A DNA stretch of 64,000 nucleotides from contig JAWKSZ010000043.1 of assembly GCA_041402045.1 (NCBI GenBank), forward strand, positions 1-64,000. Direction: 5' to 3'. A program made the translations under genes and the position numbers. The stretch's first letter is position 1; the number at the start of each line of letters is the position of its first letter. Positions 50,496-60,080 of this stretch are shown here, piece after piece. The notes beneath the pieces are model-generated. The model saw only the letters and a program-made list of their open reading frames with translations, had not been told where the DNA came from and made no database searches. The DNA is from Planctomycetota bacterium. Lineage in GTDB: Bacteria > Planctomycetota > J058.

Positions 50496-50867
50496 CTAGG
50501 CGGTCTTGGCGACGTCGGGGTGGGCCCAGGACCAGTCGAGCTGCTCGGGGTGCTGCACGTACTTCCATGGGTCCCGGATCACCCGCTCGAGGTGGCCCCG
50601 CGGGATCCGCCACTCGAGGCCGGGGGCGCCGTCGGCGGGCGGGGAGGCGCGCAAGCAGCCGTGCTCCAGGCGCACCCCCAGCGGGGTCGGCGGGCTGCCG
50701 TCGTGGTGGGTGATTTCACAGACCACCGTGCGGTCGCCCAGGTTCGTCTCTGCGGCCAGCAAGCGTTGGAGCATGCGGCGCTGGCTGCGGTGGACCTCGA
50801 TGCTCCGGTTCACGACGTCGAGATATCGAGCGAGGAGTGCCGAGTCGTCGGCGAGGGCTGCCATCAT
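50496..50867 (-). CDS. hypothetical protein, first gene of an operon with the aldehyde dehydrogenase
   Basis: Start MMAALADD with AGGAGG RBS 5 nt upstream. A motif array lies upstream. Confidence 0.5.
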   Translation of the reverse strand: MMAALADDSALLARYLDVVNRSIEVHRSQRRMLQRLLAAETNLGDRTVVCEITHHDGSPPTPLGVRLEHGCLRASPPADGAPGLEWRIPRGHLERVIRDPWKYVQHPEQLDWSWAHPDVAKTA

Positions 50868-51002
50868 GTGCACCTCCTAGGCACAGAGGCAGTGCAAGTC
50901 GAGGTCCGGGGGCGTCTCGGGCGCGGGCGCTGGATCACGGCTGCCACAACACGGTGTCCAGTCAACCTTCGAGGCTCGAGGGGGCGCTCGGACTGCAACG
51001 CG

Positions 51003-51176: not shown

Positions 51177-51560
51177 TTACAGCACCATGCACAGCGCGGC
51201 GGCGCCCACGCTGAGGCCGGCGCAGAGCCAACCGCCGATCCGGCGCAGGCGTTGGGCCCGGCGTCGCCGGCGCAGGTAGGGGAACAGGGCGTCGAAGTCG
51301 CGGGCCCGGATCCAGCGCAGGCGTTCGGACTCGATCCGACCGCGCTGCATGTCGCGTTGGCGGCCCGACCACAGGGGGTCGTCCACCGCCTCGGGCGGCA
51401 CGATGGTTCCGTCCTCGAGCACGAGGTCCCCGGTGTCGGGGTCGATCGCCCGAATGAACACGGGCCAGCCGTCGTCGGCGCGGAACACGAGCTGACCCGC
51501 GCGCAGCGGAGGGAGGGGGGTGCGGCGAAAGGAAGGGCGGACGGACCACAGGGAAGGCAT
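51177..51560 (-). CDS. small hypothetical protein with C-terminal TM helix
   Basis: C-terminal real part of ORF 51177..52553, starting MPSLWSV. Confidence 0.45.
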   Translation of the reverse strand: MPSLWSVRPSFRRTPLPPLRAGQLVFRADDGWPVFIRAIDPDTGDLVLEDGTIVPPEAVDDPLWSGRQRDMQRGRIESERLRWIRARDFDALFPYLRRRRRAQRLRRIGGWLCAGLSVGAAALCMVL

Positions 51561-51679: not shown

Positions 51680-52366
51680 CTAGCTGCCCTGGCCGCCGCG
51701 GTCGCGGAAGTGGGCCTCGGTCAGCCAGGTCAGGACGGCGCGCTCGTGGGCGCGGGCGCTCTGGATCCAGGCCAGCAGGTCCTCGCGCAAGGCCTCGATC
51801 GCGCGCCGCCGGGCGGCGGACGCGCTGGCCCAGCTCGGCTCGAGCACGCGCTCCCAGAGGTGGCAGAGCCCGGCGACCAGCTCGCCTTGCTCGGCGCGCA
51901 GCTGCTCGACGCGGGCGGCGAGGGTCACGTCGGCCTCCAGGATCTCGCCCAGGACCTCGCGGTTGACGCGCAGGTTCGCGCTCCAGGCCTGCTCGGCCTG
52001 GGGCAGGAGCTGAGTCAGCTCGCGCAGGTAGTCGCTCTCGCGGCCGGGGACCACGTCGCCGAGGAGGAAGCCCTCCAGGCGCTCGAGCCAGCGCTCGCAC
52101 TCCGCGGCCGCCGAGTTGACGCCGTTGGCGTTGGCCAGGGCCTGGCGGGTGAGGTCGGCCAGGAGCCCCTCGGGCGCGGGCCGCAGGCGGTCCAGGGCGG
52201 CCACCCGCAGCGCGGCGTGCAGCCCGCCGCGCGCCAGGAGGCGTGAGGTCACGGCCTTGCCGTCTTGCACACTCAGGATCACGCACAGGGACTCGACGGT
52301 GGGGGGGCGGGCGTCGTCGACGACCAGCGCGCCGATCTCGAGTTCCTTGAGTTCCGTGAGCTTCAT
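51680..52366 (-). CDS. hypothetical protein
   Basis: Start MKLTELKELEIG with GGAGG RBS 7 nt upstream. 228 aa, helical. Confidence 0.55.
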   Translation of the reverse strand: MKLTELKELEIGALVVDDARPPTVESLCVILSVQDGKAVTSRLLARGGLHAALRVAALDRLRPAPEGLLADLTRQALANANGVNSAAAECERWLERLEGFLLGDVVPGRESDYLRELTQLLPQAEQAWSANLRVNREVLGEILEADVTLAARVEQLRAEQGELVAGLCHLWERVLEPSWASASAARRRAIEALREDLLAWIQSARAHERAVLTWLTEAHFRDRGGQGS

Positions 52367-52539
52367 GGGGGACCTCCGTTCCACCCCCAAGAGCGCACGC
52401 CGCATGCCGGGGGCGCTGCGGGCAGAACTCGGGCGCGAGCGGGCGACGCCGCGTCGCGTCGCGACAGCGCTGTCGGCGCCGTGGACAGCTCTGACCCCCA
52501 GCCGTGGGGGCGCGCCGCGCGATCGCGTAGGCTGAGCGG

Positions 52540-55242
52540 GTGACCAAGCGCAAGCTGCGTCCTAGCCAGGACGTCTACCATCGGATTCGCTGGGACCCGC
52601 GGCTCGAGCCCACGGAGTTCGAGGTCGTGCACCGCGAGCGCTCGGGGCGCTTCGAGGCCACGCCCCTGGTGGAGTTCGTCCCCGGCGGGCGGATCCCCTG
52701 GTCCCGGGTCTACCGCGTGCGCCGCCGCGACGGGTTGGTGGTGTGGGACCGCGAGGCGCGGCGCGACCTGTTGTTTGGCTCCGGCGACACCGCCCCCGAG
52801 GAGCGCCTCGAGCCCACCCGCGGCGCCGAGCCCGACGACGGGTTCCTCGTGCCCCTGGTCCCCTGGCGCCACGGCGCCGAGGGCTGGCGCGAGGACCGCG
52901 CCCCCGCCGCGCCGCTCCCGCGCCGCCCGCTCTCGGTCCTCAGCTACAACGTGCTGTTCGAGCGCTTCCGCGCCGAGCACCTGCGCACCGCCGAGCGGCG
53001 CCCGGCCCAGCTCGCGCTCCTGGGCGCGCAGCAGGCGGACCTGATCGCGCTGCAGGAGGTCACGCCGCCCTACCTCGAGGCGCTCCTCGCCGAGCCCTGG
53101 GTCCAGCGCGACTACTGGGTCAGCGCCGGGCCCGGGAGCGAGGTCGTGGAGCCCAACGGCCAGGTCCTGCTCTCGCGGGTGGCCCCCGCGCGGCTCGGAC
53201 TCCACGCCTACAGCGGGCGCAAGCACGTGCTGGTGGCCCGCTTCGCCGACGGCGTCGGCGGGCTGTGGGTCGCGGTGGTGCACCTCACGAGCAACATGAC
53301 CCCCAACGCCCCCGAGGTCCGGGTGGGTCAGCTCGCGGCGCTGCGCGGGTTCCTCGAGCGCAACGCGCGGGAGGCGACCTGGCTCGTCGTCGGGGACTTC
53401 AACCAGCGCGAGGGGGAGCCCCTGGGTGGGCTCGTCGAGGCCGGGGCGCTGGACCTCTGGCCCGCGCTGCACCCGGGCGACCCGGGCTACACCTTCGACC
53501 CCGGCGCCAACGCCCTCGCCGCCGAGCTCAGCAGCAGCCCGCACCCGGTGCGCTACGACCGCGTGCTCCTGCGCGCGACCGCCGACCGCTGGCGCGGCGC
53601 GGCCCTCGAGCGCTTCGCCTGCGACCCGGTCCCCGGGGTCGAGCCGCCGCTGTTCCTCTCGGACCACTTCGGCCTGACCCTCGAGCTGCGCCCGGGGGAC
53701 GGGAGCCAGGGTCAGCCGGTGCACACCAGCGCGCTGGCGGTGGTCCCCCCGCCGGGGGCCTGGCCCGCGCTCCAGGCCCTGCGCCGGGCGCACGACCCGC
53801 GGCACCGGCGCTGGCCCCCGCACGTGAGCGTGCTCTACGGGTTCGTGGCCGCCCCGCACCTGGAGGCGGCCACGAGCGCCGCGCGCGAGGCGCTGCGCGG
53901 GCACGCGCCGTTTCGCCTGAGCCTCGACGGCCTCGAGCGCTTCGCCCACCGCCGCCGCGCGTCGGTGTGGCTGCGCCCCGAGCCCGCCGAGCCCCTGCGC
54001 GCGCTGGAGGCCGACCTCCTGCGCGCGTTCCCCGCCTGCAGCGAGCAGCGCCACAAGGGGACCGCGGGCTACACCCCGCACCTGACCGTGGCCCAGGTCT
54101 CCCTCGCCGAGACCCCGAGCTTCCTGAGCGAGGTCGGGCGCGGCTGGACCCCGCTCGCGTTCGAGGTCGACGCGCTGTGCGCGCTGACCCGGGAGCAGGG
54201 CACGGGCTTCGACCTCCAGGCCGCGATCCCTCTGGGGGCCCCGCGCTCGCTGGAGCAGGCGACCGCGGCCTCGGGCCTCCTGGGGGAAGGCCCGCCCCCG
54301 GGGCTGGAGGCCCTGCGCCGGGCGAGCCCGCTCGAGCTCGCGGTGTTCGGCTCCTGGGCCCTGGACGCGGCGCTTACCTCCAGCGACCTCGACCTGGGCG
54401 CGACCCTCGGTCCCGGCCAGGAGCCCCTGGCCTACTACGAGCTGGTCGCGGAGAGCCTCGAGCGCGCGGGCAGCCTCCGCGAGCGGCGCGTCGTCCCCGG
54501 CGAGCTCCCGCTCCTGCGGCTGGAGCTCGAGGGCGGCGCCAAGGTCGACCTCCTGGCGAGCGTCGGCGCCCCGCCGCCCCAGGCGGGGGTCCCCGCCTTG
54601 CTGCGGACGGCGGCGGGCGCGCGCTGGGAGCTGGCCCGCGCGACCCTGCGCGCGCTCCGCGCCTGGGCCTCGGCCCGGCAGCTCGACGCCCAGGCCCTGG
54701 GCGGCCTCGGCGGCGTGGCCTGGGCGGCGCTGGCGGTCGAGGCGACGCGCGGCGCCGCGAGCGCTCCCGAGGCGCTGGAGGCGAGCCTCGCCGCCCTGGC
54801 CCAGGACGGCGCCGACGCCGTGCGCGCGGCCAGCGCGCGGCTCGCGATCCCGGGGGAGCCGACCAAGGGGCTCACGCCCTCGACCCGCGCGCTCCTCGCC
54901 CGCGAGGCGCGCCGCGCCCTGGGGTTGGCTCAGGCCGCGCGCCGCGGCGAGGGGGCCTGGAGCGGGCTGTTCTACCCGGCGCCGCTCCCGCCGGAGCCGG
55001 TGGTGTGGATCGAGCCTGCGCGCGAGGGACCCGGGGTCGAGGGCGCGCTCCTGGGGATCGCCCAGCGCGTGATCGCGGCGCTGGAAGAGAGCGGGGCCAC
55101 GGTGCGGCCCTGCCCGCAGCGCGAGCCGCGGGGCTGGGCCTTCGGGGTCGACGTGCTGGGGCCGAGCCAGGCCCGGGCCGTCGAGCGCGCGCTGCGCCCG
55201 GCGCGCGAGCTGCGCGCGGCCTTCGAGCCCGAGCCCGACTGA
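52540..55242 (+). CDS. multidomain RNA-repair-like enzyme: N-terminal DUF504/MJ1316-type cyclic-end recognition domain, EEP (endonuclease/exonuclease/phosphatase) domain, 2H/LigT-like phosphoesterase (HVSV...HLTV), C-terminal polymerase-beta-type nucleotidyltransferase (GSW...DLDL)
   Basis: DVYHRIRWD...RIPWSRVYRV. EEP motifs LSYNVL, LQEV and SDHFGL. Two H-x-S/T-x motifs. GS-x(n)-D-x-D motif. 900 aa. Confidence 0.75.
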   Translation: MTKRKLRPSQDVYHRIRWDPRLEPTEFEVVHRERSGRFEATPLVEFVPGGRIPWSRVYRVRRRDGLVVWDREARRDLLFGSGDTAPEERLEPTRGAEPDDGFLVPLVPWRHGAEGWREDRAPAAPLPRRPLSVLSYNVLFERFRAEHLRTAERRPAQLALLGAQQADLIALQEVTPPYLEALLAEPWVQRDYWVSAGPGSEVVEPNGQVLLSRVAPARLGLHAYSGRKHVLVARFADGVGGLWVAVVHLTSNMTPNAPEVRVGQLAALRGFLERNAREATWLVVGDFNQREGEPLGGLVEAGALDLWPALHPGDPGYTFDPGANALAAELSSSPHPVRYDRVLLRATADRWRGAALERFACDPVPGVEPPLFLSDHFGLTLELRPGDGSQGQPVHTSALAVVPPPGAWPALQALRRAHDPRHRRWPPHVSVLYGFVAAPHLEAATSAAREALRGHAPFRLSLDGLERFAHRRRASVWLRPEPAEPLRALEADLLRAFPACSEQRHKGTAGYTPHLTVAQVSLAETPSFLSEVGRGWTPLAFEVDALCALTREQGTGFDLQAAIPLGAPRSLEQATAASGLLGEGPPPGLEALRRASPLELAVFGSWALDAALTSSDLDLGATLGPGQEPLAYYELVAESLERAGSLRERRVVPGELPLLRLELEGGAKVDLLASVGAPPPQAGVPALLRTAAGARWELARATLRALRAWASARQLDAQALGGLGGVAWAALAVEATRGAASAPEALEASLAALAQDGADAVRAASARLAIPGEPTKGLTPSTRALLAREARRALGLAQAARRGEGAWSGLFYPAPLPPEPVVWIEPAREGPGVEGALLGIAQRVIAALEESGATVRPCPQREPRGWAFGVDVLGPSQARAVERALRPARELRAAFEPEPD

Positions 55243-55307
55243 ACGGAGCTCCGCGACGCTGCGGGATCGCGCGAGCCGGGGCTGGGAAGACGCGGCCCGC
55301 TTCCGTT

Positions 55308-55425
55308 GAAGCGAAGCCTCTCCTAGGAGCCGGAGTCACGATCCTGAGCGGGCGAGGGACCTCCGGCGCGGCGACGACCGTCCACGACCCTCGCCCGCTC
55401 AGGATCGTGAACTCCGGCTCTTAGC
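55308..55425. repeat. about 115-bp structured repeat: conserved 5' flank (aagcgaagcctctNctag) plus long imperfect hairpin (about 28-bp arms); copy 1
   Basis: Arms ccggagtcacgatcctgagcgggcgaggg / ccctcgcccgctcaggatcgtgaactccgg. Second copy at 61958..62074 with compensatory changes. Both copies lie between convergent gene ends. Confidence 0.6.
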
Positions 55426-55780
55426 GGCCGGTCGGGGGCCCGGTGAACTCGATCACGTCGGCGGTGATGATCACCGAGTCGCCGCTCACGATCCCTACGT
55501 TGTAGCTGGAGACGTCCTCGGAGACGTTGATCAGCGCCCGGGGCCGGTCGTCGAGCTCGGCCAGGATCCGGACCTTCTCCAGCGCCTTGGCGTACTGGGC
55601 GTTGATCCCGATCCCGAACACCTTGAACCCGGAGTCCGAGCCGCGCACGCCGGTCTGGATCACGCGGTAGTTGTTCGAGGTCAAGGTCACGTTGGTGACG
55701 TTGTTGCCGCGAAAGGCGCCGTCGGAGGTGCAGGCGCTGAGGGCGCAGCAGGCGGCGAGGACGAGGAGACGCACGTTCAT
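55421..55780 (-). CDS. small lipoprotein (hypothetical)
   Basis: Start MNVRLLVLAACCALSAC with GGAG RBS. Lower-GC region. Confidence 0.55.
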   Translation of the reverse strand: MNVRLLVLAACCALSACTSDGAFRGNNVTNVTLTSNNYRVIQTGVRGSDSGFKVFGIGINAQYAKALEKVRILAELDDRPRALINVSEDVSSYNVGIVSGDSVIITADVIEFTGPPTGR

Positions 55781-55836: not shown

Positions 55837-56532
55837 TTACTCGGCGACCAGGCGCTTGCGCAGGTCCGGGATCAGGCTCTCGGTCTCCTGGAAGATCCGG
55901 GGGTATTCGATCTGCTCGCCGTTGTCGTCGAGGATCGACTTGATCTGGACCTTGTAGATCAGCGGGTTGCGCGAGGTGATCGAGCAGAAGAACTGGTTGG
56001 TCAGCGCGACGGTCTTGGTCGGGCCGCGGCGCAGGGACTTGGTCTTGCTCTTGCTCGCGATGTACCCGGCCTGGTTGTCCTGGTTGTCCAGCTCGGGGTA
56101 GTAGCGGGTGAGGGTGTCGATCAGGACGTCCCACACCTGGTCCTCGTCCATGTCGCTGTTGACCTCGAGCTCGAGCCAGGTGTTCGAGGCGTCCGAGGGC
56201 ACGGTGTGGGTCCACACCTCGTCCTCGTGGAGCTTGATCTCAATGAACTCCTTGCCGTCCTCGACCCCGTTGCGCTCGCTGAAGGCGTCGATCGTGAGCT
56301 GGTGCACGAGCTTGGTGGAGCGGACGTAGCCCTCCTTCGTCGCCGCGACCTTGTAGCGGGTCTCGGGGTCGGCGAAGTCGAAGCCGTAGAGCACGGGCGA
56401 CACGCCGATCGGCTTGTCGTCGACCGAGATCTCGGCGCCCTCCTCGGGCACGGTGCGGATCTCGACCTGGCGCACGGTCTCGCAGCCGCAGAGCAGGGTC
56501 AGGGCGAGGGTCAGGGCAACGGTACGGGTCAT
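55837..56532 (-). CDS. lipoprotein (hypothetical)
   Basis: Start MTRTVALTLALTLLCGC with AGGAGG RBS 6 nt upstream. Lower-GC region. Confidence 0.6.
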   Translation of the reverse strand: MTRTVALTLALTLLCGCETVRQVEIRTVPEEGAEISVDDKPIGVSPVLYGFDFADPETRYKVAATKEGYVRSTKLVHQLTIDAFSERNGVEDGKEFIEIKLHEDEVWTHTVPSDASNTWLELEVNSDMDEDQVWDVLIDTLTRYYPELDNQDNQAGYIASKSKTKSLRRGPTKTVALTNQFFCSITSRNPLIYKVQIKSILDDNGEQIEYPRIFQETESLIPDLRKRLVAE

Positions 56533-56633
56533 GCCGGCCTCCTGGGATCGAGCGGCGCACGGTAGCACGGGAGCCCAGGGGCTGCGAGCGCTCTCCTAGA
56601 GGGCTGCAGTGCAACGGAGGCCCGGCAGGCCCG

Positions 56634-59600
56634 CTACTCGGGCAGCTCGAGGAGCACGCGGAAGCCGACGTCGTCGTAGCCCTTGATCGTGCGCCCGCGG
56701 CGCGAGGTCGCCCGCGTGTCCTGGAGCGGGGTGCAGAAGCTGCCCCCGCGGTAGATCCCGGCGCTGCCCGAGGCCTCGAAGGGGTCCGTGAGCTCGGTGG
56801 TGCTGTCGAGGGGGTAGGCGGTGAAGCCGTCGCGCACCCACTCCGCCGCGTTCCCGATCGTGTCGTAGAGCCCGAAGGGGTTGGGCGCGACGCCCTCGCG
56901 CCCGACCGCGGCGAGGAGCGTGGCCCCGTCGCTGCAGCCGAAGTACTCCTGCCCGCGGCCCTGGAGCTTGGGGGCGTAGGCCTCGACGTAGTCGTCGTCC
57001 TTGACGTTGGCGCGGTCCCGCGCCCCGGCGACGGACTTGCCCCAGAACCACGGACCCCGCGTGCCCGCGCGGCAGGCGTACTCCCACTCGGCCTCGGTGG
57101 GCAGGCGCAGGCGCCCGGCGAGGCCGGCCGCCTCCCCGAGCTTCGCGCAGAAGCTCGAGGCATCGATCCGGGTGACGCCCACCGCGGGCCAGGCGGGGTC
57201 CTCGAGGCTGAGGGTCGGCGGCTCGGCGAGCCCGGCGCGCCCCTCGTGGGGGGTGAACTCGGGGGCGGTGTAGGCGCCCATGACCGCCGCGTACTGCGCC
57301 TGGCTGACCTCCCACGCGCTGAGGTAGAAGCCGCGGGTCAGGCGCACGAGGTGCGGCCGCGCGTCGTCGTCCCGCGCGCGGAAGAAGGGGTCGTCCTCGG
57401 GGTTGGAGCCGCGGGAGTAGACCCCCGGCGGGATCAGCACGAACTCGATCCCCTCGACGGTCTTCGTCAGCGGCTGGTTGTGATCCTTGGCGAAGCTCTC
57501 CTGCGCCGGGGTCACCGTCCACCAGGCGCCCTCGAGGACCTTGGGGGCCTTGCGGGTGACCTGGGCCTCGCCGCGGCCCTCGTTGCCCACGTCGTCGGTG
57601 GCCGCGACGGCGAAGGTGTAGGTCCCTTCGGAGTCGATCTTGATCCCCTTCCACACCCACACGCTGCCCACCCGCTGCGGGGGGCCCTGCTGCACGGTCC
57701 CGGCCCCGCGCTTCTCCAGGGTCACGGCGCTCGGCGGCTGGGCCTCGCCGGAGATCCGCACCTGGACGTCCACCTGGGTGATCGCCTCGGGGTCGCCCTC
57801 GGGCCAGGCGGTGGGCACGACCTCGACCTCGACGGTCGGCGGGGTCGCGTCGCGCACCGCGACCAGCTCCAGGCGCGTCTCGTTGCCCACCTCGTCGCGG
57901 GCCACCACCGCCGCGGTGTGCTCGCCCTCGCTGCCGAGGGCCCAGCTCCCGCGGAACACGCCGTCGGCCGCGGCCTCGAGGGCCACCCCGTCGAGGGTCA
58001 CCCCCGCCAGGTCGTGGTCCTGGGCGCGGACCTCGACCGGCACGGCCGCGTCGCGGGTGCGCAGGGGCGCGCCGTCGGGGGACTGGGGCGGGAGCCGGAG
58101 CTGGAGCGTCGGCGGCTGGCGCAGGAGCTCCTCGCGCTCGGCCGCGAGCCGCTTCTGCTCTTCCTCGCTCTCCGTCTCCTGGTCCTTGACCACCTGCTCG
58201 CGGTCGCGGAGCTCGGCCTGCTGGCGCTCGAGCTCGCGCTGGTGCCGCGCGCGGCTGAAGAAGGCCAGCGCCCCGTAGGTCACCCCCGCGAACACCAGCA
58301 CCAAGGTCAGCGCCGTGAGCGCCGCGGGCTTGGGGTTGCGCCGCACCCAGCGCCGGAGCTGCTCCAGCGCGCTCGGGCGCTGGGCCACGATCTTCGTGCT
58401 GGCCTGGTAGCGGCGCAGGTCCTCCGCCAGGGTCTCCATGCTCGGGTAGCGGTGGCCGACCTCCTTCTCCAGGCAGTGGAGCACGATCGTCTCCAGGTCC
58501 TCGGGCACCTCCGCGCGCTGGCGGCGCAGCGTGGGCGGGCTCTTGGAGAGCACCTGGTGGATCACCGCGCCCACGGTCTTGCCTACGAAGGGCGGGCGCC
58601 CGACGAGCGCGTAGTAGAGGGTCGCCCCCGCGCCGTAGACGTCGGCGCGGGCGTCGACCGGCGCGGCCATGCCCGCCTGCTCCGGCGGCATGTAGCCCGG
58701 GGTGCCCAGCAGGGTGAAGCCCTGGGTCAGCCCCTGGCTCGGGTCCTCCTCGAGCAGCTTGGCCAGGCCGAAGTCGGTGAGGCGCACCGTGCCTTCGCGG
58801 TCGAGCATGACGTTGTGCGGCTTGACGTCGCGGTGCAGCACGTTCTGCGCGTGGGCGTAGCCCAGGGCGTCCGCCAGCGCCGCGCCGATCTCGGCGGCGC
58901 GCGCCGGGGGCAGCGGGCCTTCGCGCTCGACGAGGTCGTGGAGGGTCTCGCCCTCGACGAGCTCCATGGCCATGTACCACAGCTGGCTGCGCTCGTCCTG
59001 CTCGAGGTCGAGCACGCTCACCAGGTTCTTGTGGCTCAAGCGTCCGGCGGCGCGGCCCTCGACCAGGAAGCGCTGGACCCCGGTCTCGGCGCCCGGGGGC
59101 GCGCGCAGGACCTTGAGCGCGACCTTGCGGTCGGTGCGCAGGTGCACGGCCTCGTAGACCGCGCCCATGCCGCCGGCGCCCAGGGCCTTGAGCAGGCGGT
59201 AGGGCCCCAGGCGCGAGGGGATCGCCGAGCCCGGCTTGCCGCGGGGGATCGTGGCCTGGCTCTGCTGGAGCTGGCTGCCCTGGCTGGCCTGGGTCGGCGG
59301 GTCGACCTGGGTGTCGCCAGGGCCGGCCGACGCCGGCCCTTCGCGGGTGTGTTCGGCCCGGGTCTGCTCGTCGCCGCCGTGGCTCGACGCCGCGGGGGGC
59401 GGCGGCGGGGTCAGCCCGGGGTGCGCCCCGGTGTGGGAGCCCGTCTGCGAGCCGTGCTGCCAGCCGGGTTGGGAGTGGAACCCGCCCACCCGCGAGTCGA
59501 AGGCGTTGGGGTGCGCGGCCACGTTCGAGTCCGAGAGCGTGCGCGCCGCGCGCACGTCGCCCCCGTCGCTGAAGGTCGAGTCGGGGCCCTCGCTGAAGTC

Positions 59601-60080
59601 GGGGAGCGCGATCGGCCCCGACTGGTTGAGCGTGCTCTCCAGGTCCGAGGGCGCCCCGGCCAGGGTCCGCGCGTCGCGGTCGAAGGCCGCCAGCGGCGGC
59701 TCGTCGTCCTGAGGCGGCGGGCTGTAGAGCGTGGGCGCGTTGGGGTCGAGGGGCTGGTCCAGGGCGCTGGGGCGAGCGCCGACCCCCGGCGGGAGCGGGG
59801 CCTCGGCGAAGGTCATGGCGCCCCGGTCCACCGACGGCGGCGCGGGCGCGGCCTCGGCGAAGGTCATGGCGTCCCGGTCCACCGACGGCGGCGGCGGCGC
59901 GGCCTCGGCGAAGGTCATGGCGTCCCGGTCCACCGACGGCGGCGGCGGCGCGGCCTCGGCGAAGGTCATGGCGTCCCGGTCCACCGGCGGCGGCGGCGGC
60001 GCGGGGGGCGGCGGGTCCGGGTGCAGGGGCTGACCCGAGGGGTCGAAGGGCTGCTCGTCGTCGGGAGGGGTGCCGCTCAC
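56634..60080 (-). CDS. Ser/Thr protein kinase with N-terminal PPPPSVDRDAMTFAEAA x4 repeats, TM helix, Ig-like region and C-terminal FGE-sulfatase domain
   Basis: Kinase motifs GAGGMGAVYEA, HRDVKPHNVML and DFGLAK. C-terminal RLPTEAEWEYACRAG...GNAAEWV...RGGSF. 1,148 aa. Confidence 0.8.
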   Translation of the reverse strand: MSGTPPDDEQPFDPSGQPLHPDPPPPAPPPPPVDRDAMTFAEAAPPPPSVDRDAMTFAEAAPPPPSVDRDAMTFAEAAPAPPSVDRGAMTFAEAPLPPGVGARPSALDQPLDPNAPTLYSPPPQDDEPPLAAFDRDARTLAGAPSDLESTLNQSGPIALPDFSEGPDSTFSDGGDVRAARTLSDSNVAAHPNAFDSRVGGFHSQPGWQHGSQTGSHTGAHPGLTPPPPPAASSHGGDEQTRAEHTREGPASAGPGDTQVDPPTQASQGSQLQQSQATIPRGKPGSAIPSRLGPYRLLKALGAGGMGAVYEAVHLRTDRKVALKVLRAPPGAETGVQRFLVEGRAAGRLSHKNLVSVLDLEQDERSQLWYMAMELVEGETLHDLVEREGPLPPARAAEIGAALADALGYAHAQNVLHRDVKPHNVMLDREGTVRLTDFGLAKLLEEDPSQGLTQGFTLLGTPGYMPPEQAGMAAPVDARADVYGAGATLYYALVGRPPFVGKTVGAVIHQVLSKSPPTLRRQRAEVPEDLETIVLHCLEKEVGHRYPSMETLAEDLRRYQASTKIVAQRPSALEQLRRWVRRNPKPAALTALTLVLVFAGVTYGALAFFSRARHQRELERQQAELRDREQVVKDQETESEEEQKRLAAEREELLRQPPTLQLRLPPQSPDGAPLRTRDAAVPVEVRAQDHDLAGVTLDGVALEAAADGVFRGSWALGSEGEHTAAVVARDEVGNETRLELVAVRDATPPTVEVEVVPTAWPEGDPEAITQVDVQVRISGEAQPPSAVTLEKRGAGTVQQGPPQRVGSVWVWKGIKIDSEGTYTFAVAATDDVGNEGRGEAQVTRKAPKVLEGAWWTVTPAQESFAKDHNQPLTKTVEGIEFVLIPPGVYSRGSNPEDDPFFRARDDDARPHLVRLTRGFYLSAWEVSQAQYAAVMGAYTAPEFTPHEGRAGLAEPPTLSLEDPAWPAVGVTRIDASSFCAKLGEAAGLAGRLRLPTEAEWEYACRAGTRGPWFWGKSVAGARDRANVKDDDYVEAYAPKLQGRGQEYFGCSDGATLLAAVGREGVAPNPFGLYDTIGNAAEWVRDGFTAYPLDSTTELTDPFEASGSAGIYRGGSFCTPLQDTRATSRRGRTIKGYDDVGFRVLLELPE

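Follow-up and report, generated by a model that had tools for sequence, protein, structure and literature searches.

The stretch of DNA analysed here, referred to below as the window, comprises 64,000 nucleotides from an uncultured Planctomycetota bacterium known from a metagenome-assembled genome (MAG) (contig JAWKSZ010000043.1). Its plus strand carries, at 52540..55242, a complete gene of 900 codons plus stop that encodes an MJ1316/DUF504 domain, an endonuclease/exonuclease/phosphatase (EEP) domain, a 2H phosphoesterase domain and a poly(A) polymerase (PAP) module. The product is regarded, with moderate confidence, as a stand-alone RNA 3'-end heal-and-tail enzyme belonging to a conserved MJ1316-EEP-2H-PAP family. 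This reading is supported by the catalytic residues, a confidently predicted fold, the recurrence of the same set of modules and the linkage of relatives to a ligase/kinase gene. The architecture itself is not novel: the family is already recognised in annotation, and the window gene is a reduced, ligase-less member from a Planctomycetota clade. The Pfam names of its domains likewise already carry the RNA-repair prediction.

The gene and its four modules

The gene at 52540..55242 is genuine. The GC content of the window is ~72%, and several overlapping frames at the target gene carry long open reading frames (ORFs). Such overlaps are typical of GC-rich DNA, and length alone is no proof of a gene, a caution that applies to the whole window. 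Spurious ORFs over the target reach 893 aa in another plus-strand frame and 572 aa on the antisense strand (52540-55424 and 52363-54081). Gene calls within the window were made by GC3 analysis, and the target frame is the sole frame with coding composition (GC at the first, second and third codon positions, 0.82/0.56/0.98). The ORF list gives a GTG start codon and a product of 900 aa; this GTG, at 52540, is the first possible start because an in-frame TAG lies four codons 5' of it. The N-terminus (MTKRKLRPSQ) aligns residue for residue with those of homologues. A preliminary description, made from the sequence alone, had proposed a single 900-aa gene with four domains in the above order. The GC3 frame, the upstream TAG and a deposited protein identical over 900 aa ('MAG: RNA repair domain-containing protein [Planctomycetota bacterium]') bear out the first claim, and the domain boundaries (MJ1316 at 7-71, EEP at 131-385, 2H at 397-564, nucleotidyltransferase at 589-900) agree with the second.

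The MJ1316/DUF504 domain (aa 7-71, 52558..52752) matches Pfam PF04457 over model positions 2-75 of 75, scoring 41.2 bits against a gathering cut-off of 26.3. Residue conservation was scored in 14, then 62 homologues. In the 62 sequences, P53, W54, R56, W69, R71 and D76 of the MJ1316 region do not vary, and R17, D19 and D70 are kept in at least 90%. PMC6514570, which cites Burroughs & Aravind 2016 and Mazumder et al. 2002, presents MJ1316 as a predicted binder of RNA 2',3'-cyclic phosphate ends. A linker follows (aa 72-130, 52753..52929). It forms a small beta-hairpin at the invariant W116, with predicted strands at 109-118, and the per-residue model confidence (pLDDT) drops below 50 at residues 93-96 only.

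The EEP domain (aa 131-385, 52930..53694) is of the TDP2-like subtype. Its assignment comes from an Exo_endo_phos (PF03372) match at aa 134-376 (37.5 bits, cut-off 24.5) together with a four-layer alpha/beta sandwich fold. The catalytic and metal-binding set is complete, with N137, E173, H248, D286, N288, D340, D375 and H376 invariant in the 62 sequences. The structures of ANGEL2 and Nocturnin both superimpose on the domain, and TDP2 is its best match in sequence and in structure. In this protein, EEP would serve as a terminal 2'/3'-phosphomonoesterase. The match to TDP2 speaks for a different role, DNA-end processing, in which EEP would clear 5'-tyrosyl or other DNA adducts and the polymerase would be a terminal transferase. 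However, identity to TDP2 is low (17-23%), and the residues in common are the generic catalytic set of EEP enzymes. Moreover, MJ1316, 2H, canonical PAP and the RNA ligase/Pnkp-type kinase found beside actinobacterial relatives all have RNA precedents. A DNA-end function is thus the least probable of the readings considered here.

The third module is a YjcG/LigT-like 2H phosphoesterase domain (aa 397-564, 53728..54231). It matches 2_5_RNA_ligase2 (PF13563) at aa 403-554 with 128 bits against a cut-off of 27, has a duplicated alpha+beta fold, and contains two H-x-T/S motifs (H428-V-S and H514-L-T). Across homologues, the first motif reads H-x-S/T/N and the second H-x-T/S, and both His residues are invariant. 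The domain is presumably an RNA 2',3'-cyclic phosphodiesterase. It differs from E. coli ThpR and B. subtilis YjcG in its location within a multidomain protein and in its second motif, HLTVAQ. Of the two extended motifs of the ThpR/LigT equivalog, HxTxxF and HxTxxR, the latter is not matched: a Gln occupies the position of its Arg. That Arg is essential in ThpR (PMC4201822). The score against the ThpR/LigT equivalog TIGR02258 is 27.1 bits, below the cut-off of 65.7. The domain is thus that of a 2H enzyme, yet no orthologue of ThpR.

Pfam detects the fourth module only in part, in the form of two fragments below threshold: NTP_transf_2 at 591-626 and PAP_central (PF04928) at 700-732. The module consists of a nucleotidyltransferase palm (aa 589-680, 54304..54579), a reduced PAP central domain (aa 681-812, 54580..54975), which contains the PF04928 match, and a C-terminal alpha/beta domain (aa 813-900, 54976..55239) that corresponds to the truncated start of the PAP RNA-binding domain. 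The palm has the G-S pair and the three catalytic Asp of canonical PAPs (G604-S605, D616-x-D618 and D670). G604, S605, D616 and D618 are invariant in the 62 sequences, the window protein reading D616-L-D618; D670 is kept in at least 90%, one Myxococcus sequence having Glu instead. The PAP-specific central domain is also present, with W709, A710, G721, G725 and W728 conserved. A profile built from 14 diverse family members, mostly Myxococcota and Actinomycetota, matched PAP gamma (E 2.8e-62), PAP alpha (1e-56) and yeast Pap1 (6e-53) over the catalytic and central domains. A profile restricted to the window clade again gave PAP gamma as the top match (E 6e-17, residues 95-427), the alignment spanning the palm, the central domain and the start of the RNA-binding domain (PAP gamma ~400-427). 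This identifies the nucleotidyltransferase as a canonical poly(A) polymerase of the eukaryote type. The palm of the 'polymerase-beta-type' enzyme in the preliminary description stands, and the assignment is refined to a canonical PAP with catalytic, central and truncated RNA-binding domains. The motifs quoted there (two 2H H-x-T/S motifs and GS...DxD) are present and invariant across homologues, and the Pfam check proposed for the modules placed MJ1316, EEP and 2H above their curated cut-offs, with the catalytic residues present.

The window protein shares its fold and catalytic core with canonical PAPs (PAP alpha/gamma, yeast Pap1, S. pombe Pla1) but is bacterial, is fused to healing modules, and has a reduced central domain and a truncated RNA-binding domain. 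In the window clade the RSLNGxRVTD segment of canonical PAPs is lost and the MPIITP..NST..NVS segment is degenerate, whereas Myxococcaceae members keep both, as in eukaryotic PAPs. Asp716 aligns with the Tyr of PAP gamma RGIYSN, which we take to stack on the adenine of ATP; the added nucleotide is therefore not assumed to be A. At the C-terminus ~88 residues remain, compared with ~150 in PAPs, and they are modelled as a beta-alpha-beta-beta-alpha unit (pLDDT 75-90). The PAP_RNA-bind family (PF04926) has no Pfam match in the window protein; it is matched at the equivalent place in relatives from Pelomyxa and from metagenomes.

The AlphaFold (AF2) model of the whole protein is confident (pLDDT 92.5, pTM 0.83), and the high pTM suggests that the four modules are held in a fixed relative arrangement within a compact fold. 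Mean identity to homologues is 0.44-0.56 in MJ1316 and EEP, 0.30-0.36 in the palm and lowest, 0.25-0.36, in the linker; the polymerase part evolves faster than the MJ1316 and EEP parts. All three enzymatic modules look active, because their catalytic residues are invariant or strongly conserved.

A ligase/kinase partner and the proposed heal-and-tail mechanism

When the neighbours at 49 actinobacterial loci were clustered, 44 of the loci proved to have a co-oriented gene, combining RNA_ligase (PF09414) and AAA_33, immediately 5' of the four-domain gene. The median end of this gene coincides with the start codon of the four-domain gene, and other neighbours recur in at most 8 of the 49 loci. 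In Streptomyces, the two genes overlap by one base, and the ligase carries a KxDG motif. Examples are found at L004:6208-8001 and at loci L013, L016-L018 and L020-L031. By tblastn, nearly all Actinomycetota, together with one Polyangiaceae MAG (L062), carry the ligase/kinase gene in this co-oriented position, while at a Myxococcaceae MAG locus (L073) a ligase-like ORF adjoins the four-domain gene in divergent orientation. The kinase part is similar to that of bacterial Pnkp; no sequence relative of the partner was found in the PDB at E<0.01. The actinobacterial pair is a strict two-gene putative RNA repair operon, translationally coupled. Between them, the two products are predicted to act as ligase, 5'-kinase, 2H phosphoesterase, phosphatase-type enzyme and polymerase. 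The operon links the family to the repair of RNA breaks that leave a 5'-OH and a 2',3'-cyclic phosphate.

These enzymes have counterparts in known repair systems. Trl1 of fungi and plants, which combines ligase, kinase and a 2H cyclic phosphodiesterase, and the phage T4 pair Pnkp + Rnl have 2H-type opening of the cyclic phosphate as a healing step in common with the family. The actinobacterial pair amounts to the Trl1 activity set (PMC7145591) split over two genes, although the partner ligase is of the PF09414 type and not of the Trl1 type. Compared with Trl1, the window gene is without ligase and kinase and has the phosphatase-type EEP module and the polymerase in addition. Bacterial Pnkp/Hen1 shares the concept of cyclic-phosphate healing combined with modification of the repaired 3' end (PMC3675462), but the folds (calcineurin-type phosphatase, Hen1 methyltransferase) are unrelated; no Pnkp or Hen1 homologue is found near the window gene.

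In the proposed mechanism, MJ1316 would dock the protein on an RNA end that bears a 2',3'-cyclic phosphate, the kind of end that ribotoxins and metal-independent ribonucleases leave. The 2H domain would open this end (RNA>p) to a 2'-phosphomonoester, in the manner of ThpR, which converts RNA>p to RNA with a 2'-phosphate (PMC4201822). The metal-dependent EEP domain would then strip the 2'-monoester (or a 3'-phosphate) to leave a 2',3'-diol. Phosphate removal is assigned to EEP because a terminal phosphate blocks extension and EEP is the only candidate phosphomonoesterase in the protein. Finally, the canonical-PAP-type polymerase would extend the new 3'-OH with an untemplated tail.

In bacteria, the most plausible effect of such a tail would be to pass the fragment on to 3'-exonucleases, for disposal or quality control; in lineages with an adjacent ligase/kinase gene, the healed end could be sealed instead. 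Fragment disposal is favoured for the ligase-less members because bacterial RNA tails generally recruit 3'-exonucleases. We infer the substrate, how 2H and EEP divide the work, which nucleotide is added and what becomes of the tailed RNA. The preliminary description had proposed RNA end healing, ligation or hydrolysis, and tailing. Healing and tailing are the best-supported reading, but ligation is not upheld, as the 'LigT' type of 2H domain is a cyclic phosphodiesterase and not a ligase (ThpR, PMC4201822). Nor is the protein all-in-one, as both ligase and 5'-kinase are missing from it; in Actinomycetota they reside in the separate, coupled gene that the window lacks.

A similar logic operates where ANGEL2 acts upstream of MTPAP. 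ANGEL2 hydrolyses terminal 2',3'-cyclic phosphates in vitro, and in mitochondria without ANGEL2 transcripts build up 3' phosphates that block their polyadenylation (PMC9525292). The likeness is a functional analogy and not one of membership. ANGEL2 is a CCR4-family EEP 2',3'-cyclic phosphatase, whereas the EEP domain of the window is nearer to TDP2; MTPAP is a non-canonical mitochondrial PAP, whereas the polymerase of the window is canonical-PAP-like; and two separate proteins there correspond to one fused protein here. Nocturnin, for its part, has been given a role in NADP(H)/NAD(H) interconversion (cited by PMC9525292).

Several points weigh against the heal-and-tail reading. Binding of cyclic-phosphate ends by MJ1316 is a published prediction only. 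The closest relative of the EEP domain is TDP2, a 5'-tyrosyl phosphodiesterase, and not the CCR4/ANGEL clade. The second 2H motif is without the Arg that ThpR requires, and the domain scores below the ThpR equivalog cut-off. The lost PAP segments and Asp716 leave the choice of nucleotide, and even processivity, uncertain. In the literature searched, no experimental or other paper on the MJ1316-EEP-2H-PAP family was found, nor any measured activity for a family member. The decision between decay and stabilisation as the fate of the tail is pure inference.

The actinobacterial operon also lends itself to the main rival explanation, in which the window protein would be the healing subunit of a ligase-based RNA repair system, with ligase and 5'-kinase encoded elsewhere in the genome and sealing as the main outcome. 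The polymerase would then be auxiliary, replacing lost 3' nucleotides or marking failed repairs. The overlapping stop and start codons of the operon in those 44 of 49 loci, the pairing in the Polyangiaceae MAG, the divergent ligase-like ORF in the Myxococcaceae MAG, the Pnkp-like kinase and the agreement of ligase, kinase and 2H with the enzyme set of Trl1 (PMC7145591) all favour this explanation. However, tblastn (E<1e-5) detected no ligase/kinase gene in the 64-kb window or within 8 kb of its closest Planctomycetota relatives (L001 and L002), and none near Myxococcaceae/Nannocystaceae members (within 8 kb). No other neighbour is conserved among the ligase-less loci, and the catalytic triad of the polymerase is equally strictly conserved with or without a ligase partner. 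Ligase-based repair as the main function of the window protein is accordingly rather unlikely.

Two further alternatives are less probable still. In the first, the protein would edit or turn over 3' tails: the polymerase adds them, a CCR4-like EEP and/or a USB1-like 2H trims them, and MJ1316 binds the resulting cyclic phosphate, the role being stability control of particular RNAs and not damage repair. This is improbable. In the second, a role in nucleotide signalling or defence, the protein would resemble OAS and CD-NTases in synthesising 2'-5'-linked or cyclic oligonucleotides, with 2H as a 2',5'-phosphodiesterase that degrades them; this is very improbable. Both, like DNA-end processing, are disfavoured by the relative strengths of the matches and by the ligase/kinase linkage.

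Taken further, the heal-and-tail reading may tentatively be extended to a bacterial RNA-surveillance pathway built on a canonical PAP of the eukaryote type. Such a pathway would recognise RNAs cut to cyclic-phosphate ends by toxins or stress RNases, strip the phosphate and add a tail; ligase-less members would serve disposal, and the operon would offer a choice between sealing and tailing. The tail may not be poly(A), because an Asp occupies the position of the presumed adenine-contacting Tyr and PAP-specific segments are lost. Bacteria have three well-studied systems for RNA ends with 2',3'-cyclic phosphates: RtcB, Pnkp/Hen1 and phage T4 Pnkp/Rnl. If the proposal is true, heal-then-tail would be a fourth logic beside them, and a canonical eukaryote-type poly(A) polymerase would be at work in bacteria. 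Some of the lineages with this family, such as Streptomyces, are not known to have a dedicated PAP I. The family is thus an attractive biochemical target, offering the actinobacterial operon, the ligase-less versions of Myxococcota and Planctomycetota, and permuted protist versions. The window gene adds a further, somewhat reduced member from an uncultured Planctomycetota MAG, and its individual value is modest.

Distribution and architectures of the family

An initial search for homologues yielded 157 proteins that share the architecture. They occur in Myxococcota (Myxococcus, Corallococcus, Pyxidicoccus, Nannocystis), in Planctomycetota MAGs and in many Actinomycetota (Streptomyces, Kitasatospora, Nonomuraea, Streptosporangium and others). 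When 1.84 billion cluster representatives were searched exhaustively with phmmer, 267 reached E <= 1e-30, most of them 850-1100 aa long; at 50% identity, the family comprises ~270 clusters. Scanning a single genome for each species gave 112 relatives, from which 79 loci were kept. The MJ1316 domain alone (83 aa) yielded one match as a query, the word index being too coarse for such a length. In the databases (PGAP, IMG, UniRef), members are called 'poly(A) polymerase', 'RNA repair domain-containing protein' or 'DUF504 domain-containing protein'; named members include those of Myxococcus fulvus, Nannocystis punicea and many Streptomyces, 'thpR_2' on plasmid2 of Calothrix brevissima, and CAOG_08076 of Capsaspora. 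The window protein is 34-67% identical to family members over its full length, with all catalytic residues kept. Proteins of its clade are ~890-1000 aa long, compared with mostly 930-1080 aa in Myxococcota and Actinomycetota. The clade further differs from the rest of its family in having no ligase/kinase partner and in the lost PAP segments.

The phyletic pattern is patchy, which is consistent with lateral transfer. A full four-domain architecture occurs in a Clostridia MAG (L015:258-3263). The plasmid2 of Calothrix brevissima NIES-22 (AP018209.1), a conjugative cyanobacterial plasmid of 208 kb, encodes a 991-aa four-domain homologue (L086:6992-9967, annotated thpR_2) among hypothetical genes. 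Eukaryotic members are found in Capsaspora owczarzaki (CAOG_08076, P0216), in Pelomyxa schiedti (P0206) and among amoebozoan transcripts of Nematostelium and Soliformovum. The Capsaspora protein has the bacterial order MJ1316-EEP-2H-PAP and is collinear with Myxococcaceae proteins at ~34% identity, which suggests horizontal transfer.

Other members are rearranged. The order is 2H-EEP-PAP-MJ1316 in Pelomyxa and in two metagenomic proteins (P0244, P0237), and MJ1316-2H-EEP in two amoebozoan transcripts (P0215, P0202), one of which adds an N-terminal RWD domain. The recurrence of one module set in different orders argues that the modules are functionally coupled and act on a common substrate. Some architectures are incomplete: a Saccharothrix variant (L072:7905-10205) contains MJ1316, EEP and PAP_central with no detectable 2H, in two Streptomyces loci (L077:8001-8807 and L083:8001-8783) MJ1316 is followed directly by 2H without EEP, and an Archangium protein of 1081 aa (L076:5283-8528) has only a related C-terminal 2H domain.

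Genomic neighbourhood

The target gene is monocistronic and lies in an unremarkable chromosomal neighbourhood of unrelated housekeeping and regulatory genes. No sigma-70 promoter or intrinsic terminator is recognisable near it, and Rfam and tRNA scans of the window gave no match. On the minus strand just upstream are three small genes of 125 aa (50496-50873), 127 aa (51177-51560; with a hydrophobic, probably membrane-spanning end) and 228 aa (51680-52366). They are real by GC3 (0.89-0.97), as the preliminary description had assumed in pointing them out, but they are not linked to the target: none has a Pfam or PADLOC match, and a single system with the target was rejected, as none adjoins any homologue.

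The preliminary description had also proposed checks of distribution and of conserved neighbours. The family does extend across several bacterial phyla and some protists, and the ligase/kinase gene is a conserved neighbour in Actinomycetota; the ligase-less loci, those of the window clade included, have none. All-against-all comparison of 19 ligase-less loci recovered only generic kinase/response-regulator domains and Myxococcaceae synteny. In two Corallococcus species (L008:7029-7820, L009:1566-2345) the four-domain gene is directly preceded by a SIR2-family gene, which lies farther off in Pyxidicoccus and Myxococcus; this is probably no more than Myxococcaceae synteny.

The suggested defence or counter-defence context found no support. 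PADLOC gave no meaningful match in the window (best 14.5 bits, E 0.0077), a phage collection of 50,697 records contains no homologue of the four-domain protein, and the neighbours are unrelated. The few matches in a plasmid collection come from the one cyanobacterial conjugative plasmid and from actinobacterial records, 0.13 to 11.9 Mb in size, coverage being partial.

Downstream, two lipoprotein-like genes stand in convergent orientation to the target, on the minus strand, and together fill the 594-bp gap behind it. One encodes 119 aa with an LSAC lipobox (55421-55780, GC3 0.97) and the other 243 aa with a weak PEGA-domain match (55837-56568). The other flanking genes encode an aldehyde dehydrogenase and a LysR regulator, and those further out a second kinase, an amidotransferase, pirin, NmrA, SnoaL and an acyltransferase. 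At 56634-60080, also on the minus strand, lies a gene for a Ser/Thr kinase of 1148 aa fused to Ig-like and FGE-sulfatase domains. It contains a 51-bp tandem repeat (59787-60004, 4.3 copies, 95% identity), which encodes a 17-aa unit (DRDAMTFAEAAPPPPSV) in the N-terminus of the kinase.

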